Below the pieces are notes generated by a model. That model was not told the DNA's origin. It did not search any database and saw nothing but the letters and a program-made list of their open reading frames with translations. Of a DNA stretch of 64,000 nt, positions 16,356 to 64,000 are shown piece after piece. The DNA comes from Giardia intestinalis (Eukaryota). The DNA is taken from the NCBI GenBank assembly GCA_000002435.2, contig CM018791.1. One strand, given 5' to 3'. Made by a program: the position numbers and the translations under genes. Each line of letters starts with the position of its first letter. The first letter of the stretch is position 1.

Positions 16356-19300
16356 TTAGACAGCTTCGGAGATCTCTGTGATAGTATGCTGCTCAGCACT
16401 AGCAAACAGGAGCCGCATTGTCGATTTTGCCGATCGCAAGCTGAGGGGGAGCTGGTATGTTAGCTCTTTCTTGGTAACGACACTGAGCAGGGGCAATGAG
16501 AAGATCTGTATTGCTGTAACAATACCATCTGACGCCTGCTGGATCAACCCCTCGCGAGCCCTTCTTTTCTCTCTGTCTAGGGGGCTATCAGACAAATATG
16601 CAAGATGGTAAACGATCAGCTGAGAAGACACGTTCTTGTGTGCTCGAGCAGCAGGAAACTTAAAGGTTACAATAATGTTGGGTTTAACTGCAGAAAGCTT
16701 GATTATGGTCCTGTGAGGATATACCACAGACGAGAAGATGGTAGAATCCAGATATCTGGTTAGCCGTGAAGTCTTGGCCAGTACACCAGAGGCGAGCTTT
16801 ACCTCACATTCAAGCAGACTAGCACCTGGCTTGGGAATGAAGTTAGCGCACTGCATTGATGAAGTGGTGTGCGTCAAGGACACAGTGCTGACAACCCTTG
16901 TTGGGGGCTTCTCTTGTGGTGATCTGGTGGATGCGGCAACACCAATGATGTAGTAGTCGGTTGCTGGTATGCTCATCTGAAAGGAGTATGTGGAAAGAGG
17001 CGAGTGTGCATCCAATACAAACTGGAAGACGCGAACTCCTGCTAATAATGCGGGGATCTCCTTGCAGCTGTAAGCTTCTTCTGGTTTTGAAGTGATGCTA
17101 GGTCTTGCTGTTGTTTCGGAAAACGGGTTAGACGGGGTTACTAAATAAAGCATTTGTAAAAGACTTGCTGGCTTGATTAGCAATCGAGTTTGTTGGCAAC
17201 AGTCACTGGGAGAAGACTCGTCAGCAGAAGACTCGTCTTGAGATATATGTGTACACACACAGCCATTCTGTAAGTGAAGCTGGGCACAGGTGCCAGCCAA
17301 TCGCATGGCCACGGGCATTGCCAGATTATGAGCAAGATGCTCACAAAAGGAGCCGAGAATGGTAAGCTCTGTCGGGTCTTCGTCTGGAAGGTTGGTTAGT
17401 ATAGAGGTCTCGTCTATACTGCTCTTGAGCTTATTTGCCAGCTCTTGGTCAAATGTCTCTAACAGAGCATATGCTCTCTCAGACTCCGTCATGGTCTTAT
17501 CTGAAGCTAAGATTTTGCAGATTGGTTCCAGAAGACTCTCTTCACCTGCACACTCCGGACAAAGGGATGCCGGCGCTTCAAATTCATAACTAGAATAAAA
17601 TATCTGATCACGGAGAGGTGAACACGATACGCAAAATGGTAGCTGACACTTTGCACATCGGTCTCCTCTGAGATCTTCGCTAATAGATGCTCCACAGCTG
17701 GAGCAAGGCAGCCCAATTAGACTGCTTGCGATCGCTGTCGGCTGCTCCTGCAAATATTCAAGAAGCATCTGCTCAAACTTATCAGCAATTTCTCCCAGGG
17801 ACAGAGTATTTGTAACTGCTGCTGAACGAAGACGTGCATACAGACTATTCTTAATACGTACTTGGGGAGACAGAATACTGAACAATGTATTGCTGTCTGA
17901 CCTAATAAATCCAGCTAGGAACGTTGAAGAAGCCAATTTGTAGAGAGACGCAGCAAGCTTAATGTAAGTGTCGCTGAAGTAAGATGAAGATTTATACAGC
18001 TTCTTATAGTTTGTGGTGCCAAATATGATCTTCAGTTCGTTAGAGTTCTCTAATAGTGCTGGTGTGTATAGAACCAGAAGCCTAATAATTTCTAAAATCA
18101 TGGGATTTGGTGCTATCATAATCAATGGAATAGAGGCCTTCTTTTCATGCAGTTGGGCTCTCAGAATACTTAGCAGCCCATGAGTGAAGGAAAAATTGCA
18201 TCGAGAGTCAATGATAGCACCTATGCACGTTAGCTTGCTGCCAGCTCCTTTCCTTTTGGTCTTTGCAGCACTTACAAACCGCTGGGCACGTTGATAAATC
18301 GACATTAGCAGAGGTTGTGATGTAGCTGCAATACTTTGCTCCTGGCTTAGCATCAACGCTGTCAGAGTTGATATGATAGTAGGCATAGCTGACTCTCCAT
18401 TCATGTACCGTGCTACAGCGTAACAATTAGACATGGATATTTGAGTGTTAGACTTAGAGCGACCATTATCGGCCAGCAATGAGGTTACAAGAGCACTGAG
18501 TGCGTGGCGTACAGTTATCAGGTGACAAGTGGTATTGAGGGTCGCTTCGGTGATGGGTGGCGCACTGCACAAGGATAGTCCTGCATCAACACTAAATCCT
18601 GGCACAACGAGGTGAGAGATGATAAACTGAGAGCCTTCCGGCTGGTCTACTCGAACAAGATCGAAATCAAAGGGAGTCTTTACCCCAGCGATCAGAGAAG
18701 AGTCACTCCACGATATCTCACATATTAGAGAGAAGAATAAATACTCCTGCGGAATACTGTCCTGACTGCTTTCCTGTATGACGGAGCTTCGCTTCATGTT
18801 CAGATCTGGGACAGACACGTGGAGGCCTACCTGATGACTTTCATATAGCTTGTACCATATGCTTGGACACCTCTTGCTACTGATAAATACGTTTATGCTT
18901 GGAATCGTATGCGGAGGCACTTGGTCGGACAGGCCTAAAGATCTCCCAGTAGGGGTCCTCAGACTGAGATGAGAACAGTAAATGATAATCTGTTTGGCAG
19001 ACGACACAGGTATATTAGACTGAAAGTACACCGACTTACCGCTTGGGCCAAGAGGGGCTTCATCGAAAGGAGCAAATGAAACTGGACGCACTACAGCTGA
19101 CATGGCAGATACAAGTCTGTGCGCATAGCTGAGTACCTTATGCTGGTAAGGTGATTGCTTGTCTGAAGAGGGCTTTACTTCCTTACTCAAATAGGAGGAT
19201 CGCAAGTTTTTTGTATCGAGCTGGAGTAGGAGACGCTCAGCCAAGTCGTTGACAGTTGCTGCAGTCAACACACGATTGAGTCTTTTCTCCTTAGAGTTTC

Positions 19301-20219
19301 CGAATGCGTTGATTTGCTCTAGTAGCATGTCCAGTAATAACTGGTAATCTGTTGTGAGACCGAGGATAAGGGGGTGTATGGCAAACTCAACCTTTAGCTC
19401 TGCGTGTTCTCTATCAATGACCGGGGTGAGACCGTACTTAGAAAGAGCTGGGCCGAGAGCTTCGCAGTGCTTCTTATTCGCGAAGTATAACCGCCTGATC
19501 CTCTGGGACCGGCAGGTAAGAAGCGTCGCTAGTTGCTCTACAAAGTTGCCAACACTTTGATCCTCCTGGTCGATCAAAGCTTCGTTATAGTTGGTAGTGA
19601 TCAGGGGCAGTTGTCGGGTATTAGATGTGCCATCACAAAAAGCCCGATCGTCAGTTAAATTGCATGAGAGATAGTACAGAATAGATGTTTTCCTTTCTTT
19701 CTGACCAGATATCCAGTCTCTCCCCATGTATATGTGTTCACCTTTGTAGCCGATAGAAAACCGAGTAACAATATTAAGTTTTCGCAACGCCTCGGCATCT
19801 GTATCACAAAACATGGCGTAGAACGTCAGCTCTGGAAGGGTAGGAAAAGCAGAGGAATGAACATGTGTTGAGAGGCAATTCTGAGCCCGCAGAGCCTTGA
19901 AGAATGCCAAGGCTTCGGTCTCTTTAAATAGTTGCTTTGGGATTGCTCGCTCTATTTGCCAGGAAAGGCGAAGCGATAGGGTCTGCACCTCTGCACCATA
20001 AAAGTAGTAGACACAAGCGCTTGGAAAGAGAAGGCACCCCAAAAAGAAGCTCTCATCTATACACAGTGTCGCCTTTGCCAGAAATTCTTCGGTCAAAAGG
20101 CTTGCTCCAAGTGGATAGATGTGAGGCATGGGCTGATCTGCCGTGAAGGCTATCACCGTCTGGACATCCTTTTGTTTATCCACTAGAAAGTAGACTTCAT
20201 TAATCTCATAAACTTTCAT
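16356..20219 (-). CDS. hypothetical protein (1287 aa) with an internal treble-clef zinc-finger motif
   Basis: It is a long ORF. An 8-Cys motif, LPCSSCGASISEDLRGDRCAKCQLPFCVSCS...LCPECAG, is encoded at about 17560..17720. This is a FYVE, B-box or RING-like Cx2C spacing pattern, but it lacks the FYVE RRHHCR signature. Confidence 0.55.
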   Translation of the reverse strand: MKVYEINEVYFLVDKQKDVQTVIAFTADQPMPHIYPLGASLLTEEFLAKATLCIDESFFLGCLLFPSACVYYFYGAEVQTLSLRLSWQIERAIPKQLFKETEALAFFKALRAQNCLSTHVHSSAFPTLPELTFYAMFCDTDAEALRKLNIVTRFSIGYKGEHIYMGRDWISGQKERKTSILYYLSCNLTDDRAFCDGTSNTRQLPLITTNYNEALIDQEDQSVGNFVEQLATLLTCRSQRIRRLYFANKKHCEALGPALSKYGLTPVIDREHAELKVEFAIHPLILGLTTDYQLLLDMLLEQINAFGNSKEKRLNRVLTAATVNDLAERLLLQLDTKNLRSSYLSKEVKPSSDKQSPYQHKVLSYAHRLVSAMSAVVRPVSFAPFDEAPLGPSGKSVYFQSNIPVSSAKQIIIYCSHLSLRTPTGRSLGLSDQVPPHTIPSINVFISSKRCPSIWYKLYESHQVGLHVSVPDLNMKRSSVIQESSQDSIPQEYLFFSLICEISWSDSSLIAGVKTPFDFDLVRVDQPEGSQFIISHLVVPGFSVDAGLSLCSAPPITEATLNTTCHLITVRHALSALVTSLLADNGRSKSNTQISMSNCYAVARYMNGESAMPTIISTLTALMLSQEQSIAATSQPLLMSIYQRAQRFVSAAKTKRKGAGSKLTCIGAIIDSRCNFSFTHGLLSILRAQLHEKKASIPLIMIAPNPMILEIIRLLVLYTPALLENSNELKIIFGTTNYKKLYKSSSYFSDTYIKLAASLYKLASSTFLAGFIRSDSNTLFSILSPQVRIKNSLYARLRSAAVTNTLSLGEIADKFEQMLLEYLQEQPTAIASSLIGLPCSSCGASISEDLRGDRCAKCQLPFCVSCSPLRDQIFYSSYEFEAPASLCPECAGEESLLEPICKILASDKTMTESERAYALLETFDQELANKLKSSIDETSILTNLPDEDPTELTILGSFCEHLAHNLAMPVAMRLAGTCAQLHLQNGCVCTHISQDESSADESSPSDCCQQTRLLIKPASLLQMLYLVTPSNPFSETTARPSITSKPEEAYSCKEIPALLAGVRVFQFVLDAHSPLSTYSFQMSIPATDYYIIGVAASTRSPQEKPPTRVVSTVSLTHTTSSMQCANFIPKPGASLLECEVKLASGVLAKTSRLTRYLDSTIFSSVVYPHRTIIKLSAVKPNIIVTFKFPAARAHKNVSSQLIVYHLAYLSDSPLDREKRRAREGLIQQASDGIVTAIQIFSLPLLSVVTKKELTYQLPLSLRSAKSTMRLLFASAEQHTITEISEAV

Positions 20220-20312
20220 GACCTGAGGTCGATAGAAAAGAAAGGAGAGACCTGACTATTTTTTGGTCCTGCTTAGATTTGTGCCAAAGAACCCAGCAGC
20301 TCCACTTGCAGC

Positions 20313-21338
20313 ATGCCTCTTCTTCAGCTAAGATCCTTTAGCACGGGTGCTGCAGAGATCAAGCCCCCACAGCCCCAGGGTTCAGCATCTGCAAAGCATC
20401 AGGATTTGGAAAGAGGTAGTACTCTTAGTTTTCAACCAAAGACTCGAGGTGGGCGTAGAGCATTAAGTCTTGACACTGGATCAAGAGCAAAGGGATGCCT
20501 TGTGACTGCATGCACACCACTCTGTGGAGAGGCACATGTCCCCCAGCTGCTTCTAAGCCTAGAGAACCATGTTCAGCCGCCCAATAAACGCGCTAAGACT
20601 ATGCTCCGGACAGGTATGAAGACCGTTGTTCAGCCAACTCGCATCACCATTAAGAGCACCGATGGCACGGCTGAGTATCCACCATCCTATTTCCCCAATT
20701 CCCTGACGCTTCCGTCGATAAACTTTACTTTGGGAGATTGCCAGGTATCGCGTGAGGTTACGAAGGGCTTTGTCCAGCGTGAGGACGTCTGTGAGGCCAT
20801 AGATCCAGATGCAGCTATGGGACTCCTTGGTCACCGAATTGCAAACCACAGCATTACTATGGCCAGTAGCGGGGTCCTCAGGGAGAGCACGAAAACGAAT
20901 GAGTATTGTATGATACACTCCATCCAGAACAACCTCGCAATCATCAGACGTACAACGAACACGTTGATGAAGAGGCTTCAAGACCAGCTGGCATCTAGTG
21001 AGAGAGCGCTCGCTGAGTGTAGGGCACGCATAGATAGCGCAGAGGCCCGTGCCGTGTCTCTCGACGCAATGGTAGAACGAATCCATACTCTCGCCTCAAA
21101 CACGACGCTGCAGGAGCTTTGTGTCATCAGTAAGGACCAGGAGGATGTCAGCCACATCATTGCTCATTTGGACTCGCAGCTGGATAAAGACATTAAGACC
21201 CTCGATGAAATGTACACCTTTGGACACGACTTTTCTCAGCGTGTCATGCTATACAGGAGTCGACTTCCGGTCTTCGAGAAGACGATGACCGTCCTAAAGC
21301 TGAAGTGTGACGCAATAAAGAGCAAGGTAAACAAGTAG
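20313..21338 (+). CDS. hypothetical protein with a C-terminal coiled coil
   Basis: It is a 341 aa ORF that diverges from the upstream minus-strand block across a 93 bp spacer. The C-terminal 130 aa shows a heptad pattern. Confidence 0.5.
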   Translation: MPLLQLRSFSTGAAEIKPPQPQGSASAKHQDLERGSTLSFQPKTRGGRRALSLDTGSRAKGCLVTACTPLCGEAHVPQLLLSLENHVQPPNKRAKTMLRTGMKTVVQPTRITIKSTDGTAEYPPSYFPNSLTLPSINFTLGDCQVSREVTKGFVQREDVCEAIDPDAAMGLLGHRIANHSITMASSGVLRESTKTNEYCMIHSIQNNLAIIRRTTNTLMKRLQDQLASSERALAECRARIDSAEARAVSLDAMVERIHTLASNTTLQELCVISKDQEDVSHIIAHLDSQLDKDIKTLDEMYTFGHDFSQRVMLYRSRLPVFEKTMTVLKLKCDAIKSKVNK

Positions 21339-21361
21339 GTGCATTCACTCACGAGGACAAC

Positions 21362-22078
21362 TTAAAAGCCTATCTTGATCTGCCTAATGAACCTTCCCAC
21401 TTCAGGGCGAGAAAGCATAAGGGTGCCGACTAGGTTCGTGGCCTTCTCCCTCCACTCGGGGCAGTCAAGCTTCACAGTCCCGAGCAGTTCCTTTCCAATG
21501 CGCTTCACAGGCTCGGTGAGAGAGCCGAGGAGCTTGCTCTTGCTCTCCGCAAGGTTGATGCAGAGCTGTATGGCGTCTACAGATATGTCTGTAATCACTG
21601 AGTCGAGGACAACGAAGTCCGGGCAAGCCCTATCAGAGTGCACAGTCTTCCCCATGTACATGTAGTATCCCAGCATAACCGGGATGGGGCGGTTGTCCGA
21701 GGCCACGTAGACGAACTCGGGACGGATGCCGTCCTGGAAAGCAGCTGCGCAGTGGTACGAGGCATGCACGGACCCCACGCAGATGATTGTCTCGGGACGG
21801 ACAAGATCCAGGGCCTCCTTCAATTGCTCGATGCTAGGCCTCGTGGGAGGGCTGTCAGGAACGTCAACAGAATAGACCTCGATGCCTCTCTCTTTGCAGA
21901 TGTCCGAAACATACTCCTTCTGCTCCCTCAGATGCAAGTGGCTAACCAGCACAACCTTAGTCGCCCTGATCTCGTTGACGACAGTCGGGAAAGCCGACGG
22001 GCGATAGTAGAGGCGGTTGGGGAAGACTATTGACTCCATTTTTTTACTCGATTCCAAGATATCTAATTTCATTTTCAA
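21362..22078 (-). CDS. hypothetical protein (238 aa)
   Basis: It is an ORF in compact context. A weak HC...GIR motif, VHASYHCAAAFQDGIR, does not fit the canonical CX5R phosphatase loop, so I make no functional call. Confidence 0.45.
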   Translation of the reverse strand: MKMKLDILESSKKMESIVFPNRLYYRPSAFPTVVNEIRATKVVLVSHLHLREQKEYVSDICKERGIEVYSVDVPDSPPTRPSIEQLKEALDLVRPETIICVGSVHASYHCAAAFQDGIRPEFVYVASDNRPIPVMLGYYMYMGKTVHSDRACPDFVVLDSVITDISVDAIQLCINLAESKSKLLGSLTEPVKRIGKELLGTVKLDCPEWREKATNLVGTLMLSRPEVGRFIRQIKIGF

Positions 22079-26244: not shown

Positions 26245-27612
26245 CTACTGAACTTTTAGGCAAGCGAGCACCCCCTGGCCGCACAAGATCCCACCCTCTC
26301 CTGTGCCAGCCCTTTTCATGCGGACGAGGAATCCGAGGTGACGGATTGGTGCGGTGCCCACCTCAGATGGCTGACAGAAGCTATAGACACCTGTCTCTGC
26401 GTCAGCTCTTGCAACGTTCACAATCTCACTGGAGTAAATGAACTGAACTGCGTCCTGGCTGTCGGGGACAAGGCGCTCCATGAGGAAGTGTGTCGAGGCT
26501 GCCGCAGAGTCGGTGCGGAGCAAGGCATCCCAGGCTGCTGGTATGTCGTCTCCAAAGACGCAGTTCCCGCCGCCCTCTGCAATGGACTTCAGAACCATCG
26601 TGCTGGTATCTGGCGAAGAGGCAAGCCAGGCGGAGATCGCTTGCGGAGAGTCCAATATTTTGGAGAGAGTAGACGTAATTCCACTTAGGTATGCATACTT
26701 GCTGGTGGCTGTCAGAGTAGGCAGCATGTTCTGAACGACCTTCATACCGACAAGCTGGGCCTCAGCGGTAGGAATGGAAACCAGGGAGTGTGTCTCCAGC
26801 AGGATCCGCAATCGTTCATAGTTTGGGGTGCAGTGCTCGCGTGCATAGCCTGTGCGCCAGTAAGCGCCAGCAATTCGCAGGCATGTTCCTTTGTGCAAGT
26901 AGACGAGTCTTCCTTCTTGGGCATGCACGGCCCCTGCCAGCTCTGCACAGGTGCTTTGAACCATTGTCGATGGGATTCCGTGTGCTTTGCAATAAGAGTT
27001 ATACCCCTGAGAGATTGCAAGCTGGTCATTAAGCAGGGGTTCTTCTTCAGAGACCACCATCAACCAAACAGACGGTGTGGTATCACCCTCAACAGCAATG
27101 CGCGCAAGAGATGAATACAGCGATGCAAGGTTACTCTGCGCGATCCCTGAATGACCACAGGAAGCTTGTATGTCTGCAAGCCGTGCACTCATGCTCAGCA
27201 GCCCAACAGATACTGTGTTCATCTCGATCAGTCTGGGGCTCCGATTTACCATATAAAAGTCAGTGCGCTGGAGGATTGCAGTAGAAGCTCGCAAGACAGC
27301 AGCGTAGTCTTGTCCAAGAACGGTCTTCTTTTCTGATACTATTCTCCAGAGTACTTTACACACCTTGTCTGAGAGACATTTATTGGCCACTTCTTCAACA
27401 AGGGCACTATCCAAGGCCGCATCAGCTATGAATCGCCCCAGGAGTTCGGTCTTAGCCATGATTTCATCACATGCACTACGACTCATCACATAGGGCTCTG
27501 ATGCAATGGGAACCATGACTATGCTATCGTTGGATGACACAAATGCAATGCCTGCCTCGATAGCTCGTTGGCGAAGTTGTATGCTAGCATTCGTCTTACT
27601 ATCCATATCCAC
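26245..27612 (-). CDS. glutathione synthetase, eukaryotic (eu-GS / ATP-grasp) family homolog
   Basis: Several blocks can be aligned to human GSS by eye. [21 protein letters not shown] pairs with [40 protein letters not shown]...RTGY pairs with [34 protein letters not shown] pairs with [40 protein letters not shown] pairs with [23 protein letters not shown] pairs with ILMEKIEP. The glycine-rich C-terminus is also present. Confidence 0.8.
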   Translation of the reverse strand: [455 protein letters not shown]

Positions 27613-29291: not shown

Positions 29292-30056
29292 ATGAAGACA
29301 GCAGACTCTTCGCCAGAGCGCTCACGCCACTCAGTCCGGGCTGTTATCTCTAACGTACGCTCTTACAACGACGAGGCAGACATGCTCTCCTTGAAGCACA
29401 CTGCAAAAGGGTCATTTCCATCACTGGCCCTAGAATACAAAGCCTATAGGCTGGGGCCAGAGTACATCATGGCAAGACGAATGAAGGAGTATCTTTACCA
29501 CCCTGGAAGGACCGCAGACGTTGATGGAGTCATTCCAGAGTACCTAAACCACGAGTTTGAACAGCTTTACACCACCATGAAGCGCCCTTCTCCAATGAGA
29601 GGCCCTTCAGAAGGGCTCATGCCACAGAAGCGAATGATTGATGCTGCCAGGGTAATATTTGATCGGGAACGGGCACGGCGGCCAGTTAGTGTTTGCGCCC
29701 GGAGCTGCAGGGGAGCTCTCGCAGATGAGCATTATCAGCACTCCTTTCCAGAAGGCTCATACCATAGATCGGCTTCACTGCACTCGTCTCCACTAAGGAG
29801 CCCAAACAGGCAGGGCAAGACCACGCTTCCCTCATATCCTGACTCTATTCCCTTCCTTTCTCAATCATACAATGACCCTGTTCGTGATAACTTTCTCTCC
29901 CTGTTGAAGGATATCAAGCCGAATCACCAGGATCATCAAGGTGCAGAGTGTTTTAGGATAACTGCTGACCGCGCACTTCCCTGCCCGACTACTAATGCTG
30001 CGGTGGCCTCCCTCGTCTACTTGTCCAGGCACTTCTGTCATCTGAATACATCATAA
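29292..30056 (+). CDS. hypothetical protein (254 aa)
   Basis: It is an ORF with the right spacing in a compact array. No domain was recognised. Confidence 0.4.
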   Translation: MKTADSSPERSRHSVRAVISNVRSYNDEADMLSLKHTAKGSFPSLALEYKAYRLGPEYIMARRMKEYLYHPGRTADVDGVIPEYLNHEFEQLYTTMKRPSPMRGPSEGLMPQKRMIDAARVIFDRERARRPVSVCARSCRGALADEHYQHSFPEGSYHRSASLHSSPLRSPNRQGKTTLPSYPDSIPFLSQSYNDPVRDNFLSLLKDIKPNHQDHQGAECFRITADRALPCPTTNAAVASLVYLSRHFCHLNTS

Positions 30057-30077
30057 AAAACCGACCTCAGAATACAG

Positions 30078-31871
30078 ATGCTTCCTGAGGCCCTTGACAG
30101 TCCTGTAAATCCCTTCTCCTTAACCGGAGCACGCTGCAGACTTAGGTCTCCATCTGCCCGAAAGAGCCCACTACGGGCAGATATGCACAGAACGGACACC
30201 ACCCACTTCAATGAACACTCCATGGGGCTCACGTTCAGACACGCCAAGGGAAGCGCAACAATAGACCCCGATGAGTTCTTTGCAGAGATAGGCGTCACTG
30301 AACCAAAATTCACCGAAACCGGTCGGAAGTTGATGATGCTGCCCAAGCCCACCCCCGTCTCATCTGTTTTACGTCCAAAAAGGCCTGGGTCCACGGGTTC
30401 TGCTAGCTCTATCCCATCAACCCCAACAAAGAATAAGGCCAGATGTATTAGCGAACAGGCCCAAAGGAGAAGCACGGACTCTCTAAAGGTAACACGGGCT
30501 ATGCAGAATGTCTTCCTCACCGAACCTGTGCTAGAAGAGCTTCTACCAGAACAACAGAAATCGATTGACAAAAGGGCTAAGCAGGAAGGGCCCGCCTCAA
30601 CGAGTGGCAGCAAGCTGATCACAAACCTCATCAAGAACTCCGCAGAAAAGCTTGAGAACCTTACGAACAAAATTACAGAATACAGGCCAGCAACGCCGGC
30701 GAAGCAAGAGACGCCAAAATCCCCCACTCGATTACAGGTATCGGCATACAAGAATACCCTACGGGAAGATGTGAGACAGCGCTTTTCCACTGCACAAGCC
30801 CTTAAGCAAATGGCACAGATACGCGCTGACGAGGGCAAGATACGTGAGAGAGACCGTGCACAGTTTGAAGCAGCTCTCTTCAACGAGAGGAGCGAGAAAG
30901 CTGCCCATGAGCGTGACATTAGCGTTCTTCAGGCGAAGCTAGAGGCAGCAACCCACGAAATAGAGTCCTTGCGGACGGCCCTATCTTTGCTCACCCGTAA
31001 GCACGAGGTAGAGCATAAGCGACTACTGACGTTAGAGCTAGAGGCCCAGAAGCATAGAGATGCCCAGCCACTACTTAAGTTGCTAGATGAGCAATTCTCC
31101 CATATGCCGCCAGAGGAGGTACTCAGGAAGATTGAAGTACTCGAGTCTGCAAACCTGCAAACGTTCAACAAAGTCCAGGATACTACAGAAGCACTTAAGA
31201 CTACAGAGAATCTGCTCATTCAGGAGCGTCTAGAGCATGGGAGCAAGCTGCAGAAGCTTGGAGAGACGGTTTCCTTGCCCATTCACACCCTTGAGAAACG
31301 CGTCAGTGACCTCACAGTAGAGAACGAAAAACTGAACGATGACTTGAGAATCGTGCTAGACTCGCAGGAGCGCTATCTGGCGCTCAGCTTTGCCGTGGCT
31401 GAGCTGTGGAGCCAGTGGATAGACCCTAAAACCCACAATGGCGGGGTAGCCAAGCTGGCGGGTCGTAAGGGAGAAGGCCTGGACCCTGATCTATCAAAGC
31501 CCATGGAGGTCTTGAGGTGTATAGGGAATCTTCTCAGCATATGTTTTCCCCAAGTAGAGGCGAGTAGCACGGCCTTCAGAAGGATAGCTACTCTGGCTAA
31601 CCGCGCATGGTCCAGAATCTTATCGGCAGACGATACTGATTGTCTTTTGAAGTACAACATCTATGCAATCCTGGAGGAATGCTGCAACCGCGCAGAGAAC
31701 GGTCATAAGACAGAGCTCTACCTGAAGGAGATTATCAAGCGCCTAGAGCTGGAGAACAAGCGAGTATCAGGGGAGCTAGCCAGGGCAGAGCAGAGATGCA
31801 AGCAGCTGGGAAACTTGACCCGGAGCACCACAAGCTCGCGCATATCCAGGCCGAGCTCCGGGTACAGATAA
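30078..31871 (+). CDS. hypothetical coiled-coil protein (597 aa)
   Basis: It is a long ORF. The N-terminal 230 aa is Ser/Pro/Thr-rich, and residues from about 230 to 590 form a continuous coiled coil. The antisense ORF at 30038..30919 overlaps it and I judge it spurious. Confidence 0.55.
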   Translation: MLPEALDSPVNPFSLTGARCRLRSPSARKSPLRADMHRTDTTHFNEHSMGLTFRHAKGSATIDPDEFFAEIGVTEPKFTETGRKLMMLPKPTPVSSVLRPKRPGSTGSASSIPSTPTKNKARCISEQAQRRSTDSLKVTRAMQNVFLTEPVLEELLPEQQKSIDKRAKQEGPASTSGSKLITNLIKNSAEKLENLTNKITEYRPATPAKQETPKSPTRLQVSAYKNTLREDVRQRFSTAQALKQMAQIRADEGKIRERDRAQFEAALFNERSEKAAHERDISVLQAKLEAATHEIESLRTALSLLTRKHEVEHKRLLTLELEAQKHRDAQPLLKLLDEQFSHMPPEEVLRKIEVLESANLQTFNKVQDTTEALKTTENLLIQERLEHGSKLQKLGETVSLPIHTLEKRVSDLTVENEKLNDDLRIVLDSQERYLALSFAVAELWSQWIDPKTHNGGVAKLAGRKGEGLDPDLSKPMEVLRCIGNLLSICFPQVEASSTAFRRIATLANRAWSRILSADDTDCLLKYNIYAILEECCNRAENGHKTELYLKEIIKRLELENKRVSGELARAEQRCKQLGNLTRSTTSSRISRPSSGYR

Positions 31872-32000
31872 GGGTGTTGAGTGAAGGATGCTCTGTCAAA
31901 TCGTCTAATCAAGGTATTGACCTCAGACAGGGATAACAAGCCATCATTGCATTTTTTACGTTTCACTTCGATTTATTCACTTACTTGTGGTGGAATGCCT

Positions 32001-32951
32001 TTAGCTGCTGAGTGTCAGAGTGTAGGACACGGTAGGACTCAAGGCCAAGCCCTGTGCTTCACCAGAGGGCTCGGCAGGAGAAGAAACTGCCCCGGACTCA
32101 GCTCTCAGTCTCGCGGTCTTACATACTGGAGTCAACGAGGTCACACACTTTACATCTTCCATGCTTGGGAGCGTATCCATCCATGCACTAGGTGACTTCA
32201 GAGACTTGGTACGGGAAGTCCTAGAAACAGGAGACGTCTCCAATGTGTGCGTGAGTCGTAGGATTGGTGACCGCACTGATAGTCGGCGTAGCTGAGTAGC
32301 CTCTGGTGATGTCACCACCAAAAGAGGTGCACCCTTTCCCGGTACTCGGCTGTCTTCCAGTCCTTCCACACCGTTGTGTGAGCTATTTTCTCCACGGCAC
32401 ACCGAAGTGGTAGGGGTTTTCTGTGTTCTCAAAAAAAATGTTCTTGGAGCAGGAGAAGAACCGTCCATAGCGTCACTACAACCACTTGCATACATGCAAT
32501 TTTGTGTAAGAGATGGCGTGCATCTCTTGTATCGCTCTCCCTTTTTGGGGTACAAATATTTGCTGGTTGGATATTGCTGGTTGGTCGCAGTAGGAACAAC
32601 TCTCCAAGACGCCTTCCGGTCACCAACTATGTGATCTAGGCGCCTAGCTGCGCCGATCAGCAACTCGTCTGGACTCTCATCGTGTTGAGGTGGTGTGATA
32701 CCAAGCTTCCAAAATTTAGCAGCGAGGATAGATGATTGGCTGGAGTAAGGTTTTCTTTCGCACGTATATGATCGTGATGTCCTATCTTCTTGCTGTGCTT
32801 GCCGCTTTAGAGCAATTTCCCGGTGCAAATTCTCCATGACTTCCACTTCCTTGAGACTAATCCGGTCTGCATCTCCAAAGAGACGTAGGCTATAGCTAGG
32901 TTCTGGCTCGCCGTGCATGAATAAAGGAGCGTGTGTCAACGAGTGTTGCAT
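32001..32951 (-). CDS. hypothetical protein (316 aa)
   Basis: It is an ORF in context. No domain was recognised. Confidence 0.4.
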   Translation of the reverse strand: MQHSLTHAPLFMHGEPEPSYSLRLFGDADRISLKEVEVMENLHREIALKRQAQQEDRTSRSYTCERKPYSSQSSILAAKFWKLGITPPQHDESPDELLIGAARRLDHIVGDRKASWRVVPTATNQQYPTSKYLYPKKGERYKRCTPSLTQNCMYASGCSDAMDGSSPAPRTFFLRTQKTPTTSVCRGENSSHNGVEGLEDSRVPGKGAPLLVVTSPEATQLRRLSVRSPILRLTHTLETSPVSRTSRTKSLKSPSAWMDTLPSMEDVKCVTSLTPVCKTARLRAESGAVSSPAEPSGEAQGLALSPTVSYTLTLSS

Positions 32952-56213: not shown

Positions 56214-58761
56214 ATGCCATCAAGCTCGAGCTGGCCGCTCTTCTTAACCTCCCACCCAGACGTTCTCAGACACCACCAGGTGCTTACGGACGAGGGCTTC
56301 ACCTACATTGTCATAGACCGCCACGACAGTACCCTCGAGCGCCCCCTCGCCAAGCACAAACGAGGGAGGATCCCCGTCCCTATCACTATGATCCTCTCTG
56401 TCATGAAGCAGGTCGCTGCCGCCCTCGCCTACCTCCACGGCCTCAGTGGGGCAAACACTAGAGGCCTCGTCCACTGCGACCTCAGGCCTGCCAACGTCCT
56501 TATCAGCGCAGATGGTGAGTACTTCATCATCGCTGGCCTCGAACTCTGCAAGGACGCCCTGTGGAGTGAGAGCACCATTGCAGGCATGGCAGCGTACATG
56601 GCCCCCGAGGTGCTCCTCCACAACGAGCCCAGCCCCGCCTCTGACGTGTGGAGCCTCGGGGTCATCGTCTACGAGATGGCCACTCTAAGGAAACCGGACT
56701 TCCTGAAAGGTAAGGAGCCAGCAGAGGTCTTCGTCGATGAGTGGAGGCCGGACCTGAGCGGTGTCACTGATGGCTTCATACAGAATGTTCTGGAGAGGAT
56801 CTTTGTATTGGAGCCAGAGAGGAGGCCGACAGCCAGTGAGCTGCATGAGACACTCACTGCGGCTGACATCCCAGTTGGTGAGCTGGGGGGTCAGTGCGTG
56901 ATGCTGAAGTACAAGTGCGGATCCTTGGAGGCTGCGCTGAATGGCGCTAACGCCAGGATCGCGCTGCTGGAAGAGGAGGTTAAGACTAAATCCACTAAGA
57001 TCGACGCACTTGAAGACCAAAGTAAGGAGCACCTAGTCATGATTAAGGCACTGGAGAATAGGCTTGCACAGTTCGGTGACAGGATGAACACGGCTGGCCC
57101 TCAGTCCAGCCTCTTTTTGTTGCCCAGGCTGATGCGTGCTGCGCATACGAACGGCATGGAGACCGTCCGGATGCTGCTTGAAGAAAGACTCGGTGTTGGT
57201 CAGCGTGACGCACAGGGGATGACGGCCCTCATGCACGCGGGCCAGCAGGGGCATGTTGATCCCGTCGAATTGCTTGTTGGGGAGGAGAATGGCCTCCGGG
57301 ACAAGAGCGGCTGGACTGCGCTCATGCACGCCGTACACAACAACCATCCTGAGGTAGCCAAGATTATTGCCCCCTACAAGCATAGGAAGAGGAATAGGGA
57401 CAGCCGGACTGCTCTGATGATGGCCGCAGAAGAGGAGTATGCAGAGATTGTTTCCCTTCTGGCCCCACATAAGACTGACAGTGAACGCAACACAAGCTTG
57501 ATGAATGCTGCAACTAACTCGCCTGCAAAAACTGTTGAGGTGATGGTTGGGCATGAATATGGTTTTGGAGACTCGCATGGCCGTGCCGCTTTGATAATAG
57601 CAGCGTAGGAGGGAAATCTTAAGACGCTCAGAGCCCTCATTGAGTACGAGAAGGGGCTGAAGGATAATAATGGTTGCACTGCCCTCGTCCACGCAGTTCG
57701 AGTTGGTCACCGGGATGTTGCAAAGCTTCTCATGATACAAGAGAAGGACGCCGCTGGCTGGACAATGCCCATGTACACCGCAGCACTCGAAGACACGGAC
57801 ATGGTGTCCCAACACCTCGATGAAAAGGATCAGAGGGACAAGCAAGGCCAGACAGCCCTCATCATCGCTGCCCAGAACGGAAGGGGCGAGACGGTGAAGC
57901 TTCTGATGAAGCATGAGAATGGTGTCCCTGGCTTGATAAGCCTTATCTGCTCAGCGTGTCTTGGCGACGTCTATGCAGTCAAGAGCAGTATCCACGAGAA
58001 GGGGCATGCAGACATCATTGGGATGACGGCATTCATGTGGGCTGCATACCAGGGCCATCAGGGAGCAGTGGAGATCCTCCTCGAACACAAGAAAGGGATG
58101 GAGGACAAGGACGGGAACACAGCCTCCGCGTACACCCTCATGAACAAGCATACAAGCATAGCCATATTTCTTCGCGAGCATGAGGCTCCCTGTGGACCCC
58201 TTTCATGTGTGCATCCTTCACTGAAGAAATTGGCATGGTGAGGAAGCACTTTTCTGAAACGAAAAAAGAAACAATGATGATAAGACTGTGCTAACAACGC
58301 TGCAAAAACAAGATATGAAGATGTTATGGAATTCGTCGATTCAATCAATAACAAGGGTGTCATACGCTCATGTGAGCCGCCGACAGAAATGGCCCAGCAG
58401 CTGTGAAGGAGCTTGCTTCGCTTCAGGCAGGCAGAAGGCGTCATGATACCTCAATATAGACAACTGGATTATATACAAGGGAACTACGCTGATAAGAGCA
58501 GCGGCGTGTGACCATACAGAAGTGACGAGATTGCTCCTGGAGAAGGAGGGAAGTGTGCAGAATAATCGCAGTAAGACAATCCTCATGCTAACAATACGTA
58601 ACGATCAGATAGAGTGCGCGAGACTCCTTGCAGAGAAGGAGAGTGATATAAGTAAGGGCACACTCTTAGGCATAGCCAGACAGAGAGGCAATGAAGGCCC
58701 TCTTCTTGGAGTAGCCAAAGTAAACAGTGAATATCTCTACATCAGATCTCCACACAGGTAA
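56214..58761 (+). pseudogene. decayed NEK-like kinase/ankyrin-repeat gene (C-lobe-only kinase, in-frame TAG, frameshift)
   Basis: The reading frame opens at kinase beta4-beta5 and the hinge (LFLTSHPDVLRHHQVLTDEGFTYIVIDRHD). It retains HCDLRPAN but has AGLEL in place of DFG. There is a stop codon directly upstream in the same frame, so there is no N-lobe. The ankyrin array is interrupted by a TAG at 57606..57608 (...GRAALIIAA*EGNLKTLRALIEYE..., probably CAG to TAG). It continues in the same frame to 58241. ANK-like repeats then resume in a +1 frame (TTLIRAAACDHTEVTRLLLEKEG..., 58440..58761). Confidence 0.6.
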
Positions 58762-58999
58762 TAGCCTCTGCCTTTGAAGACACATGCACAGATACTACCA
58801 TCTTCATATCATGATGACTGTAGCGCAGATCTCGGCAGTAGTAGCCGCTACTCCATGCTCCAGGGTTCTGTGCTGCTGGGGTCTATCTTGGCTTTGTTTA
58901 AAGATCTCACAAGCAAGCTTCCCTCAGTTCCTAGCCATCCCCAGAGATGAAGGGTAATCGCGGATAGCATAGTGAAAGATTTCCCTCTATCAGTACTCC

Positions 59000-61900
59000 A
59001 GAGCCTGGCGCCCCCTTCGATCGCTCAACGGGCGTGTGCTCAGGCCGAATGTGCTTCCAGAAGTGCTCGCACGCCAGTCTGTCCAGGCTCCGACCTTCTC
59101 ACGGCCTCGTGTGGTCCCTAGCGGCGACCTCCTCTTTGGTCCTGCTTCATAGCGGGCGAGGGCGGGTCTTTGCGTTCGTTTTACAATGCATCCATCTGTC
59201 ACGACGGCAGTAACCATTGAGGCTCTGGCTCCATTGATGGTCCTGATGCAGCGAGAGTCTATCCTGGCAATATGGAGTGGGCGGGGCTGTGGGTCTGTGG
59301 CTCGCTATGAGGGGGCGTCGTTATTTATCTTTGGCCGTTGCTTCTTCTATGAACGGGTAGGCCCTCTATCGCCGTGGCCCTTTGGGACTGATGATGGTTG
59401 CTTCTGTTGCCCCTCGGTGTCTGATCAGTCCGTGGTTCTGGGCCAGCGCTCCTTCTCAGTCGCAGTCATTCTGGTTCCATAGTGGGTCCGCTTGGTGGTT
59501 GGAAATAGGCTGACAGGGGGCAGTTGCTGGGTACTCATCAGCTGCCACATGGACAGCAAGAGCCAGGCAGAACTCTCGGTGCCCGCTGGTGCCATGGACT
59601 GGACTGAATGGGTGGTGTCCGCCTGTGCCCCTGTCTTCTCGCTGTGGTGTCTATCTGGTCGCTGGATAGCACCCACGCCCACCGCCTTGCACTTGTGACG
59701 GGCTCTGCTCTGGTCGCCGGGCTGGTCTGATCTCCAGCTTGCGTTGCACTCCCCGAGACACGGAGGCAACGATTGCACGGGGCCCCTGGTTGTCCCTCTG
59801 CACCAGTGGAGGAGAGCCCTTGTCTGTTGTCTACGATCAGCCCATCCTCAGAGAGCCTGGCCTGGGCGGGCTGCCGTGCGGCTTCTGAGTGTGCCCCAGG
59901 CGAGTTCAGCAGCACAGCCCTAGAGGTGGCCGGGTGGAGTGAATCACTCGAGGGATGCACGTAAGGAGCGCACAGGTCCGGGGGCGCCCGAACAGGCTCA
60001 GCCCTCGCACCGGCTCCTCCCCGGTCGCCTCAGTCGCGGCGCCACCGAGAAGACGCGTGCCCCGTCCGACGACCCGGCACACGGACCGACGGCTGGCGGA
60101 TCGCATGGCAAGGTGGAATAAAAAGTTTGGAACATTGGCGCTCGCGTGGATCGGGATGCAGCATTCTCCAGGCTGGGAGGCTGTGCGCGCGGGCATTACC
60201 TCTAGCATGTTCCTCACCACGGCCCCAGGCTGATGGGCGGCCGAGGCCTTGTCAGCGTCACGCACGCCTCTTGCCGGCATTGGGCCGCCCGGGATCGTAC
60301 ATAGGCGGGGCTGCAGAGGCCTTCCGCGGCTCCTGCGGGCAGTCGCCTGCTGCGGAGAGCACGCCCAGCTTGGGAGCTCCTCGGGATCACCGTGCAGGTC
60401 ATCGAGACCGGTTCGACGGGCCCCACGTTAAAGGAGGCGCACGGGCCGGCGAGCGTGCCGTCTTTGCAGGCAGGCTCTCGCTGGCCGGGGTGGCGGGGCT
60501 CTCCTGTAGCCCTCCACCGGGAACGCCCTATCTACTGGCAGCGGTTCCACGGTTGCAACGCTACAGGGGCGGGCTGCAGCTCTTCCGCAGGATCTCGTCG
60601 GACAGGCAGTTGGCGTAATCTCACGTGCACTCACCAGGGGCTCCTCGCCCTCGTAGAATAGCACCCCGCACGCCCCAAAGCCAAATCGAAATGCAGCAGG
60701 TGCAGTCGACTCTTCTCGGGTTGTGGCGCTGATCCAATCAGACGCCGCGGCACGCCCCGAGCAGGCTTCATCCAGCAGCGGGTGCTCTAGCCGCGCCCCT
60801 GAGGCAAGTCTGCTTCTGACCCCGTCCCTGTGCCGACCCCAGCGAGCCCCCGACGGCGCCGGAGAAGGAGCGCCTTGCGGAGCCCCTTACTGGCCCCTCG
60901 GTGCAGGAGGATCCCCGGATTACCGATTTGCGTGCAGCAGCGGGCTGGGATGAAGCCGTGGGCACCGATGCCGGGGCACTAGCCACGGAGACAGCAGCGT
61001 TAGTAGCCAGACGAACCTCTATTTCACCCTATGGTTTTTGGGGTCCCAAGTTAGCGCCCCCGGAGCAGCACCGGCTGTACACTGTTCACTGCACTCGGTC
61101 GGCCGGATAGTGTGGCAGCTACGGCTACTCTAATTACGGCGCTTGATGTGTTTACTGCTGGGGAGGCGTTGCTCTCCGCTCTACGGGGTGGCAGGATTGC
61201 TCTCACGTGCACGGTAGTACCAGTGGACGCCCCTCAGCTGCCGGGCCGGAGCGGCTCTTGGATGGGTGATTCTATCCTCCTCCGTGCAGGCGCCCCTCGG
61301 GGCCCAGTAGACGTGCGTTGCTGTGTCCCGCAGCCTGGATCCTTGCCTTCAGACGCCAGCACGGAACTCTCTAAACTTGTCCTCCTGCGGCGTCCTATGC
61401 TGCTATGCGCACTTCGTTTTCAGTAAGCCCTTAAGGTCGCAGTCCAGGACTACCGGCCCCCGCATCATCGGATATGGTTGCTGACTGCGGCCGCTTACGC
61501 AGTCGCAGCTGGTTCCGCACTGGCCCTGTATCGGTAGCCTCGGGCCTGCATCGCCGGTGTGCGGCCCACTTCGCTCTGCGGGTGTACCACGTATAGTTAC
61601 CGGCCTCGGATTTGGTGCACCGCTGGGGCAGATAATAGCAGCAGCAATCCTGCAGCCCCGTGTGGTCGTCTGGCAGTGGATGCGAAGGTTTGCAGGTGGG
61701 AGTGGAGTCTTGGGGCTGCTCTTATCCACGTCACCGGGCGCCGTGGTCAAGGGCTCTGAAGGCATACCCAGCCCTCCGCTGGACGAGGATCGTTGGGCTG
61801 CTCAGAGCCCTGCAAGCTGCGTCCAGGCTGGTATTAGGTGGCCCAATGGCGTAGCAGTGGGAGCTGTGAGGCGAGACCTGCCGTGCACCGAGCGTCGGAC

Positions 61901-63100
61901 CATTGCTACACCGACTCCCCAAAGGGACACACTCAGCCCTGAGCCGGATGCCCACTTGTACTGTGGAATGAGCGCCTTGCATGCTTGCCGTGAGCAGCTA
62001 TCCAAGGCTCGAGGTTAGCGGGCGGGCCCCAGCTATCGCCCTCCATTATCTCAGCCGGCTAGCAAAGAACACTTCTCGAGGCAGCTCCCGACTGGAGGAC
62101 GAGTGGATCTCAGCCGCCGGCACAGAACTCCCCTTCTCCGGGGACGTGATCCTCGGGCCTGTGTGGCTCACGATCTCCATCCCTCCTTTGGGGCGGGCTG
62201 ACTGTAGCCCTTCCGTATCATGGCTAGTGCTCTCTGAAGCTCTGATGACGCGCGGCTGTGTCTTACACGTGTCGTTACAGTGGGACCCGCGCCTGCCCGC
62301 CCTTGCGTCGCTTACGGTGTAACCAGGGGCGACCGGGCACGCTCCTATCGGCACATGGCGCCCTCCGTTGTGCTGGCTCCTGACGGCAGGCCACTCTACC
62401 GGGTCTGGTACTGCAAGGACCACCTATAGCGGGGGCAGGTGCGTCTACGCATCACCTCTGCGCTGTAGACAGTAGACGGCACGCCATCAGTTAGCACAAG
62501 ATCCGGTCCGCGTCTTCTCCGGCTCTGTATCCATCAGGCTGTGCTACCATTACTATAGCCGCCCTATGACAGAACTAGGCCTTGCTTCGCAGAAATCCAA
62601 AAACAAGGGTCGCAGATCGGGCGGCACGGGTCGCCCTCGGGCTAATCCACCGCTGCAGCACGGCCACTGCGGGCACGTCCAGGTGGCCATGGAGCTGGGG
62701 GCGGCCTCGGTCGAGGATCATCGCTCGACGCGCCTCTCCTGCAGCGGCCAGGGCGTCCCGGCCGGTCTCGGGCGAGGAGGACGCTATTGAGGCACGGAGA
62801 AGTACGGTGGCCCACAGGGTTCGGCGGGGGGCCGGATCGCGCAGAGCTGGTCGAGGAGACTAGAGCGCCAGCCAGGCCGGGGCGCCGCCGGGGGAGCCTG
62901 GCGCGAATCCCGATCACGGCGGGAACACCCTCGCACCGATTGGGGACAACACAAGGGCAGGCCACGTAGGAGGCCGTCTTGATTCTCCGCTTTACCCCAG
63001 GACGCATCTGAGCTGCCCACTCGCGCTCTGGTCTGCAGGCAATCAGGGTCTACGGCCGGCACCGGATTACGCTCTTTGGGTCTCCGACATAAATCTAACA
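59000..63100. other. about 4.1 kb GC-rich (roughly 65% GC), ORF-free block of unknown nature
   Basis: There is an abrupt compositional shift from the roughly 50% GC of the flanks. All six frames hold only short Arg/Pro/Ala/Gly-rich ORFs of 170 aa or less, as expected by chance in GC-rich DNA. Degenerate internal repeats are visible, for example GGCTGCAGAGGCCTTCCGCGG and GGCTGCAGCTCTTCCGCAGG. No universal rRNA motifs were found. Confidence 0.5.
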
Positions 63101-63178
63101 AATGCATTATTTTATCAACCAAAAAATGATCACTGGCGAAATTATGTTCGCACACCGGCATAATCCAAAAAGAATTTA
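63101..63178 (+). promoter_or_regulatory. AT-rich upstream/initiator region of the VSP gene
   Basis: The composition switches sharply from GC-rich to AT-rich (AAATCTAACAAATGCATTATTTTATCAACCAAAAAATGATCACTGGCGAAATTATG...AAAAAGAATTTA) directly 5' of the ATG at 63179. Confidence 0.3.
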
Positions 63179-64000
63179 ATGCTATTGACAGCCTTCTGTA
63201 TTATGGCGAGCGTTCTCGCGGCAACCTGTACCGTTGAGGCCAGCACACGAGATTGCGCAGAGAGTAAGTGTGAAATGGTTGGCGGCACTGAAGTTTGTAC
63301 GGAATGTAAATATGCTGGGAATGTCCCAATTAACGGAGCATGTAAGCAAAAAGGTGACAGCGCCGTTACCACTGCTGGTTGCAAAAAGGCAAATGGAACT
63401 GGATTAGCAGAAGACAAGGTATGTGAACGGTGTGACGGTGCCTATTTCCTCTATAAGGGTGGATGTTACGGTGTAGATAACGAACCTGGACAGAAACTCT
63501 GCACCAAGGCCGCGGAGGGAGCATGCACAGAGGCGGCTCCGGGGTACTTTGTTCCACCAAACGTAGCTGGATCAGATCAGTCTGTGATAGCATGTAACTA
63601 CACTATCAGTGTACCAGTTCTTGATGGTAGATCATATATGGGAGTCGCTCACTGTACACTATGTGACTCTCCCAAAATAGCAAGTGATCCTACCCCTAAG
63701 CCTGCAGTGTGCACAGCCTGCGAGGATGGGTACTTCCTCGGAGCAGCTGGTGATAAAGAGAGCAAATGCATATTGTGCGGAGATACATCTGGCAGTACAT
63801 GGAAGGGCGTTGATGGGTGCCTGAAGTGCACTGCATCGGGAAAAGCAGACACCCCTGCCACATGCACTGAGTGCCAAGAAGGCAAGTACCTGAAAGGTGG
63901 CGATCCCACTAGTTGTATTCTCAGAAACGCATGCACCGGAACACACTTCCCCAACGACAATGTAGAGAACAAGAAGAAATGCCTTCCTTGTGGGGAGAAT
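63179..64000 (+). CDS. variant-specific surface protein / high-cysteine membrane protein (VSP/HCMP), partial; continues beyond the window end
   Basis: This frame runs off the window edge and is not in the ORF track. My own translation gives a signal peptide, MLLTAFCIMASVLAATCTVEA. It is followed by a Cys-rich ectodomain with many CxxC pairs (CTECKYAGN..CERCDGAYFLYKGGCYG...CTACEDGYFLG...CILCGD...CLKCTASG...CTECQEGKYLKGG...). The GGCY and GYFL motifs are hallmarks of Giardia VSPs. Confidence 0.85.
   Translation, partial: MLLTAFCIMASVLAATCTVEASTRDCAESKCEMVGGTEVCTECKYAGNVPINGACKQKGDSAVTTAGCKKANGTGLAEDKVCERCDGAYFLYKGGCYGVDNEPGQKLCTKAAEGACTEAAPGYFVPPNVAGSDQSVIACNYTISVPVLDGRSYMGVAHCTLCDSPKIASDPTPKPAVCTACEDGYFLGAAGDKESKCILCGDTSGSTWKGVDGCLKCTASGKADTPATCTECQEGKYLKGGDPTSCILRNACTGTHFPNDNVENKKKCLPCGEN

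Follow-up and report, generated by a model that had tools for sequence, protein, structure and literature searches.

A glutathione synthetase gene in the Giardia window

The longest reading frame at the locus spans 26245..27612 on the minus strand of the window (the 64,000-nucleotide stretch of DNA analyzed here) and runs uninterrupted for 455 aa when counted from a GTG codon. Inspection of the sequence placed the eukaryotic start at an ATG at 27606, two codons past the GTG, which gives a product of 453 aa. Plus-strand ORFs of 80-116 aa overlapping this frame were without support and were treated as noise. Residue numbers in the text are those of the human reference (2HGS chain A, 474 residues) unless stated; in the list of features below, each segment is located by its residues in the Giardia protein and related to the human positions.

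26245..27606, minus strand: putative glutathione synthetase (GS) coding sequence of Giardia intestinalis WB; 453 codons, intronless, ATG at 27606 and TAG at 26245-26247
27208..27228, minus strand: IEMNTVS, residues 127-133; Glu128 and Asn130 align with the Mg/ATP ligands Glu144 and Asn146 of the human enzyme, Ser133 with Ser149 (cysteine pocket)
27022..27051, minus strand: gamma-glutamyl pocket segment, residues 186-195; Ser186 for Gln211, Glu189 = Glu214, Leu191 for Asn216, Asp194 = Asp219, Gln195 = Gln220
26845..26859, minus strand: substrate-binding loop WRTGY, residues 250-254; Arg251 = Arg267, Tyr254 = Tyr270; invariant across the Giardia lineages
26554..26589, minus strand: glycine-rich G-loop, residues 340-351; Lys340 = Lys364, Glu344 = Glu368, Gly345-347 kept; Cys349 for Asn373, Phe351 for Tyr375
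26278..26322, minus strand: C-terminal segment with the A-loop, residues 429-443; Arg429 = Arg450, Lys431 = Lys452; Ile440-Leu441-Cys442 for Val461-Ala462-Ala463

The 453-aa product is identical throughout to XP_001709928.1 / KAE8302940.1 / UniProt A8B2A4 of Giardia intestinalis ATCC 50803 (WB C6), and the XP_001709928.1 / A8B2A4 record carries the name "putative glutathione synthetase". Its gene ID is presumably GL50803_15429, which is the ID given to the Giardia glutathione synthetase in PMC8700996. Homolog searches returned one ortholog per Giardia lineage. The Giardia-specific snoRNA GlsR6 lies at 31890-31948 of the window, 4 kb from the GS gene.

A first-pass annotation, made from the letters of the window, had described an intact 455-aa ORF with GSS-like blocks and had guessed that the organism was Giardia. 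The frame is indeed uninterrupted, and all four of the motifs that it named are present in the translation (including AEGGGNCVF and FLMERLVP), while the exact match to the WB protein and the presence of GlsR6 in the window bear out the guess at the organism.

The protein has the domains and fold of eukaryotic glutathione synthetases

Searches against Pfam matched the window GS to two families and to no others, namely GSH_synth_ATP (PF03917; E 3.5e-20, 72.6 bits against a cutoff of 25) and GSH_synthase, the inserted substrate-binding domain (PF03199; E 9.3e-13, 49.1 bits against a gathering cutoff of 20.9). The HMMER check proposed in the first-pass annotation thus found both eukaryotic GS domains above their gathering cutoffs, at scores that chance would not give. 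The NCBIfam equivalog model TIGR01986 matched the protein end to end at 94.3 bits, below its cutoff of 329.8. Since this match is full length but falls far under the cutoff, the protein is a clear homolog that is very divergent, and by the TIGR01986 criterion its exact function would not be transferable from sequence alone. The window GS is ~20% identical to the human, yeast, and plant enzymes and about 20 residues shorter than eukaryotic GS.

When PDB sequences were searched using phmmer, those with E < 1e-7 were solely potato, human, and yeast GS and soybean homoglutathione synthetase (hGS). An AlphaFold model built on a 96-sequence alignment, to which 90 distant homologs had been added, reached a pLDDT of 95.8 and a pTM of 0.93; six Giardia-only sequences gave a pLDDT of 37. 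The best Foldseek matches of this model were the closed-form yeast, human, and potato GS and soybean hGS (1M0W, 8FBZ, 2HGS, 3KAL, and 5OES), with TM-scores of 0.79-0.82 and E-values of 1e-25 to 1e-29. Glutathionylspermidine (Gsp), YgiC, and trypanothione synthetases scored TM 0.44-0.56 with E-values of about 1e-9 to 1e-10. Taken together, Pfam, the PDB phmmer search, the model, and Foldseek agree with the earlier description of the protein as a eukaryotic-type GS homolog.

Catalytic residues are retained, while the substrate pocket departs from the canonical one

Residues were mapped using an alignment with 121 representatives and the yeast, potato, and soybean enzymes, such that the pocket assignments rest on the alignment rather than on model coordinates. 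The potato residue numbers given by Lilley et al. 2018 (PMC5919673) came out of this alignment unchanged, and their three pockets were therefore used as the yardstick. Retained in Giardia are R125, E144, N146, S149, E214, D219, Q220, R267, Y270, and K305, along with K364, E368, G369-371, M398, E425, R450, K452, and G459-460. The set that handles Mg, ATP, and catalysis (Arg125, Glu144, Asn146, Lys305, Lys364, Glu368, the GGG of the G-loop, Glu425, Arg450, and Lys452) is present in all five Giardia lineages, and the E and N of the IEMNTVS segment are invariant in 120-121 of the 121 representatives.

Measured against potato GS, 9-10 of the 15 ADP-pocket residues are identical, and most of the other changes are conservative, the exception being Asn373 to Cys. 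This substitution is common to G. muris, Hexamita inflata, and P0035, occurs in 6 of the 121 representatives, and is a diplomonad-wide change. By the same yardstick, two of the three cysteine-pocket residues match in Giardia. Further changes relative to canonical GS are Met129 to Tyr and Ser151 to Gly/Ala.

The glutamate pocket (Q211, E214, N216, Q220, R267, and Y270) reads S-E-L/M-Q-R-Y in Giardia and thus matches at four of its six positions. All six are found in 86 of the 121 representatives and four or fewer in only 11, which places the Giardia pocket within the lowest 9% of representatives. At position 216, every one of the five G. duodenalis lineages carries Leu or Met, whereas 118 of the 121 representatives, as well as G. 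muris, Hexamita, and Carpediemonas, keep Asn. The A-loop is Ile-Leu-Cys in assemblage A and Ile-Leu-His in the other lineages, and the Ala-Ala pair linked to glycine specificity is absent. None of the 121 representatives has a Leu at position 462, which is present in soybean hGS, and only about a quarter of them carry a V/I-A-A loop.

Non-canonical pockets have been described for the GS-like proteins of nematodes, among which both canonical and repurposed enzymes exist (PMC5919673). The housekeeping enzyme Gpa-GSS1 has three of the six glutamate-pocket residues and is without Ala-Ala, and it makes glutathione with a preference for glycine; the Clade 2 enzyme Gpa-GSS5 has none of the six and shows weak canonical activity with a high affinity for gamma-Glu-Cys (PMC5919673). 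More generally, nematode Clade 1 and 2 enzymes match at zero to three of the six positions and have no Ala-Ala pair, yet glutathione is still their product and glycine their preferred substrate, canonical activity being lost only in effectors with zero to two matches (PMC5919673). Since nematode enzymes with less canonical pockets are still active, the deviations seen in Giardia are compatible with ordinary GS activity.

Orthologs are intact and under purifying selection

A word-indexed homolog search reached G. duodenalis only, and an exhaustive phmmer search was needed to recover the orthologs of G. muris, Hexamita, and Carpediemonas. The window GS is 81% identical to the ortholog of assemblage E strain P15 and 68% identical to that of assemblage B, while the G. 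muris protein (TNJ27015.1) is 410 aa long and 27-29% identical to G. intestinalis GS. The P15, assemblage B, and G. muris orthologs have all been deposited as (putative) glutathione synthetase.

We compared the assemblage A locus with its counterparts in P15 (assemblage E), in one isolate of assemblage B, and in two more lineages (runs ERR3333380 and ERR3333382). An intact ORF of 453-456 aa, with no frameshift or stop, was present in all five G. duodenalis lineages, and in each the order of genes was CDK-like kinase, GS, and MFS sugar transporter, followed by IFT81 on contigs long enough to include it. By the Nei-Gojobori method, pairwise dN/dS for GS was 0.14-0.18 with a dS of 0.6-1.6; both neighbours evolved more slowly, with a dN/dS of 0.00-0.01 for the kinase and 0.09-0.10 for the transporter. 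A dN/dS of 0.14-0.18 indicates that GS is under purifying selection, which is weaker than that on the two neighbours. This result supports one option offered in the first-pass annotation, namely that the gene is still under such selection. Key active-site positions were invariant across the five Giardia lineages in 30 of 35 cases, compared to 184 of 418 positions elsewhere (Fisher p 1.5e-6).

The published record on glutathione in Giardia

Reviews describe Giardia as being without glutathione and as using cysteine as its main thiol (PMC4588103; Brown et al. 1993, cited in PMC6934886). The first-pass annotation, which referred to this view of a glutathione-free cell, was accurate in that it is still stated. 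It had called a conserved GS unexpected, which is not supported: the protein and its assemblage E, assemblage B, and G. muris orthologs already bear the GS name, and the gene is discussed in PMC6934886. Specifically, Jimenez-Gonzalez et al. 2019 stated outright that Giardia carries GSH1 and GSH2 along with a glutaredoxin-like gene, notwithstanding the view of cysteine as its main thiol, and inferred that glutathione synthesis is retained in Giardiinae (PMC6934886); their GSH2 tree was inconclusive owing to long branches (PMC6934886). A metabolic reconstruction from 2020 assumes that Giardia uses glutathione, including for arsenic detoxification (PMC7762791). Microsporidia, whose mitosomes are equally reduced, also keep GSH1 and GSH2 (PMC5216125).

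In mid encystation, expression of both glutamate-cysteine ligase (GCL; GL50803_16001) and GS (GL50803_15429) goes up (PMC8700996), which fits the first-pass suggestion that the enzyme may be stage-specific. Both the expression pattern and the presence of the partner ligase are taken from these papers; the ligase was not among the ten neighbouring ORFs of the window that we scanned against Pfam. A reading that rested on GL50803_7195 was dropped, this gene being an annotated glutamate synthase (PMC4670223). With respect to consumers of glutathione, glutathione reductase has been found in no Fornicata and glutathione peroxidase only in non-diplomonad Fornicata (PMC6934886), and a GST gene is absent from Giardia (PMC4450592).

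In the literature searched, there was no report for Giardia of glutathione detection, of GS activity, or of a recombinant enzyme. The first-pass annotation had named, as an outcome that would count against its view, an ortholog annotated as GS that shows glutathione to be made: such annotated orthologs exist, and we found no paper demonstrating the product. The gene itself is already known from GenBank and UniProt entries and from comparative-genomic and transcriptomic papers of 2019-2021, and the tension between a GS gene and the claim of a glutathione-free cell is real but has already been raised in print.

Alternative explanations for the conserved gene

The extreme divergence of the protein, its failure to reach the TIGR01986 cutoff, and the presence of glutathionylspermidine synthetases lower in the Foldseek list could be taken to mean that the likeness to GS is superficial and that the gene encodes a member of a different ATP-grasp family (glutathionylspermidine/trypanothione synthetase-like, CDC123-like, or of the bacterial GshB type). 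However, the Pfam matches are limited to the two eukaryotic GS families, the GS and hGS structures match at a TM of about 0.8 and an E-value of about 1e-28 whereas the Gsp, YgiC, and trypanothione synthetases stay at 0.44-0.56, and the circularly permuted GS-specific motifs all align with the human numbering. A different family, to which we give practically no chance, is refuted by the Pfam, PDB phmmer, and Foldseek results. It could also be argued that the gene is a decaying relic, or one under relaxed constraint with no present function, and that it persists only because it has not yet had time to become disabled. This would be in keeping with the faster evolution of GS relative to its neighbours, with the great divergence between G. 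intestinalis and G. muris, and with the fact that glutathione-consuming enzymes are not known in Giardia (PMC6934886, PMC4450592). Yet dS reaches 1.6, which is near saturation, and the ORF is nonetheless full length everywhere with a dN/dS of just 0.14-0.18; conservation is significantly higher at the active-site positions than elsewhere in the protein, and the transcript is regulated during encystation (PMC8700996). A relic is strongly disfavoured by these observations, and we regard it as very improbable.

A more serious alternative is an active enzyme whose specificity has shifted, either to another C-terminal amino acid on gamma-Glu-Cys or to another cysteinyl dipeptide, to yield a glutathione analogue; if true, this would explain how the gene can be conserved in a parasite reported to have no glutathione. 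The fixation of Leu/Met at position 216 in five G. duodenalis lineages, where 118 of the 121 representatives have Asn, points in this direction, as do Leu462, which is found in all five lineages and in none of the representatives and is shared with soybean hGS, and the change of Gln211 to Ser, which lowers the glutamate pocket to four of six. In addition, nematode GS-like effectors have been repurposed through changes in the same pocket (PMC5919673). Those repurposed proteins, however, keep zero to two of the six residues, compared to four in Giardia (Glu214, Gln220, Arg267, and Tyr270 among them), and nematode Clade 1/2 enzymes with zero to three matches and no Ala-Ala prefer glycine (PMC5919673). 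The A-loop pair also varies family-wide, Ala-Ala being found in roughly one representative in four; of the Leu-Pro pair of hGS, Giardia lacks the Pro; and a dedicated glutamate-cysteine ligase has been co-retained and is co-regulated (PMC8700996, PMC6934886). We consider such a shift unlikely, at perhaps one chance in several. A narrower version, in which Asn216 to Leu/Met, Gln211 to Ser, and the Leu-Cys/His loop reflect drift to an undescribed cysteine-containing peptide thiol made instead of glutathione, seems slightly less likely again; if true, it would explain a conserved, regulated two-gene "glutathione" pathway beside repeated reports of no glutathione. In either form, altered specificity is a minority possibility. 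The residual value of the locus lies in its biochemistry and in these lineage-specific pocket substitutions, which point to concrete mutants and alternative substrates.

A canonical, low-flux glutathione synthetase as the favoured reading

The gene is probably the single-copy, functional glutathione synthetase (GSH2) of assemblage A strain WB, a member of the eukaryotic ATP-grasp GS family that would carry out the canonical reaction at low flux. A canonical but low-flux GS is our best reading of the enzyme; its product, the low level of that product, and its cellular role are inferred. The reading is supported by the GS domains and fold, the retained catalytic residues, the selection on the gene, the comparison with nematode enzymes, and the co-regulated ligase. 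Counting against it are the published view of a glutathione-free parasite, the lack of a GST and of glutathione reductase and peroxidase, the TIGR01986 shortfall, the low identities to other GS (G. muris included), the faster evolution relative to the neighbours, and the changes at positions 211, 216, and 462-463. In the proposed scheme, the parasite's glutamate-cysteine ligase would supply gamma-glutamylcysteine to GS, and GS, with two Mg ions and ATP, would phosphorylate the C-terminal carboxylate of this dipeptide to form an acyl-phosphate. Glycine would then be ligated to gamma-Glu-Cys to give glutathione. If flux through the pathway were low, glutathione would be a minor thiol beside millimolar cysteine and could have escaped the assays of the 1990s, and its output may rise during encystation.

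This glutathione would probably serve in glutathione-dependent cofactor roles, not in bulk redox buffering. A candidate user is the monothiol glutaredoxin of CGFS type that belongs to the mitosomal Fe-S pathway (the glutaredoxin being taken from PMC6934886), such that a role in Fe-S assembly may be envisaged; arsenic detoxification may be another. A glutathione-free cell is assumed in reviews on the redox biology of Giardia and on drug action (metronidazole, auranofin, and thioredoxin reductase), whereas genome-based papers assume that glutathione is synthesized. With ~20% identity to the human enzyme, GS would make a plausible and highly divergent drug target if it acted in encystation or in the mitosomal Fe-S/glutaredoxin pathway.

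Comparison with known glutathione synthetases

The protein encoded in the window shows no difference from the WB entry XP_001709928.1 / A8B2A4. G. muris TNJ27015.1, in contrast, is set apart by its 27-29% identity, its length of 410 aa, and the Asn that it keeps at position 216. With eukaryotic GS in general (GSH2/GSS, EC 6.3.2.3; 2HGS human, 1M0W yeast, 5OES potato), the Giardia enzyme shares the two Pfam domains, the fold (TM 0.79-0.82), the Mg/ATP/catalytic residues, the GGG of the G-loop, Arg450/Lys452, and four of the six glutamate-pocket residues, and according to the literature a partner ligase is present in the genome. It differs from these enzymes in being only ~20% identical to them and under the TIGR01986 cutoff, in the changes of Gln211 to Ser, Asn216 to Leu/Met, and Asn373 to Cys, and in an A-loop of Ile-Leu-Cys/His rather than Val-Ala-Ala.

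Soybean homoglutathione synthetase (3KAJ/3KAK/3KAL) has the same fold (TM 0.82), and the first specificity residue of the C-terminal loop is Leu in both enzymes. Unlike the Giardia protein, the soybean enzyme has a full glutamate pocket (six of six), and its loop is Val-Leu-Pro, with Pro as the second residue where Giardia has Cys/His. As a sign of homoglutathione synthesis, Leu462 is weak, given that the loop is variable family-wide and that nematode enzymes without Ala-Ala prefer glycine. We found no evidence for the use of beta-alanine by Giardia, in which the legume-type Leu-Pro pair is absent (the Leu is present and the Pro is replaced by Cys/His).

The cyst-nematode GS-like proteins (Gpa-GSS1 as well as Gpa-GSS22 and Gpa-GSS30, which are effectors; 5OEU/5OET) resemble the Giardia enzyme in their fold and conserved ATP pocket, and also in where they diverge, namely in that half of the dipeptide pocket which accommodates glutamate, as well as in the Ala-Ala loop. 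The nematode effectors, however, belong to a large expanded family, are secreted, and match the pocket at zero to two of its six residues, whereas Giardia has a single copy that matches at four.

Genomic context of the glutathione synthetase gene

The reading of the window as Giardia sequence, made in the first-pass annotation, was borne out independently by a small RNA gene that occupies a short gap between two ORFs of the window:

31890-31948, (-) strand, C/D-box snoRNA GlsR6 (Rfam RF02475; 89.5 bits, full model length covered)

Since GlsR6 is Giardia-specific, it confirms the organism without recourse to the protein-coding genes. When the regions at 16356-22078 and 29292-32951, on either side of the putative glutathione synthetase (GS) gene, were scanned against Pfam, six sizeable ORFs (1287, 341, 238, 254, 597, and 316 aa) were without a family at E <=0.001; these are typical Giardia hypothetical proteins. 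Further along the window, two ORFs with ankyrin-like repeats lie in tandem:

56214-57608, (+) strand, protein kinase-like ORF with ankyrin-like repeats, as judged by eye from the sequence
57732-58241, (+) strand, second ORF with ankyrin-like repeats, after a 123 bp gap

This pair may represent two neighbouring genes of the NEK/protein 21.1 type, or else a single gene whose reading frame is interrupted by a stop codon or a frameshift. Beyond them, G+C content rises from about 0.47-0.50 to 0.55-0.645 across ~58500-64000, where no ORFs of at least 200 aa, tandem repeats, or Rfam matches were found and the only ORFs are short and rich in Arg, Pro, and Ala. This GC-rich stretch appears to be gene-poor.

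Divergence of GS and its homologs in other diplomonads

The GS protein of the window shares only 27-29% identity with its G. muris ortholog (P0027), which is also shorter (410 aa vs 453 aa), whereas the adjoining CDK-like kinase is 97-100% identical among G. duodenalis lineages, indicating that GS is among the fast-evolving genes of this region. Regarding its expression, we rejected the methods of PMC13643923 as a source on GS because the gene they name, GL50803_7195, is annotated as glutamate synthase (PMC4670223), while Giardia GS is GL50803_15429 (PMC8700996). A slip in naming probably explains the use of GL50803_7195, and the study accordingly carries no evidence on GS gene expression.

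Hexamita inflata also encodes a GS homolog (P0028, CAL6031318.1, and paralogs), with at least two near-identical copies. Given this homolog, the inference from a 2019 analysis that glutathione synthesis was lost in the Hexamitinae ancestor (PMC6934886) may need a second look. Another GS homolog, P0035 (MGL5947898.1), comes from a 30-kb contig labelled "MAG: Aeromonas sp." in the database, although this contig is probably mis-binned eukaryotic (fornicate) sequence. P0035 carries the diplomonad-type change of Asn373 (human GS numbering, G-loop) to Cys, as in Hexamita, and the two proteins have in common a His-containing C-terminal loop and an Ala/Gly cysteine pocket.
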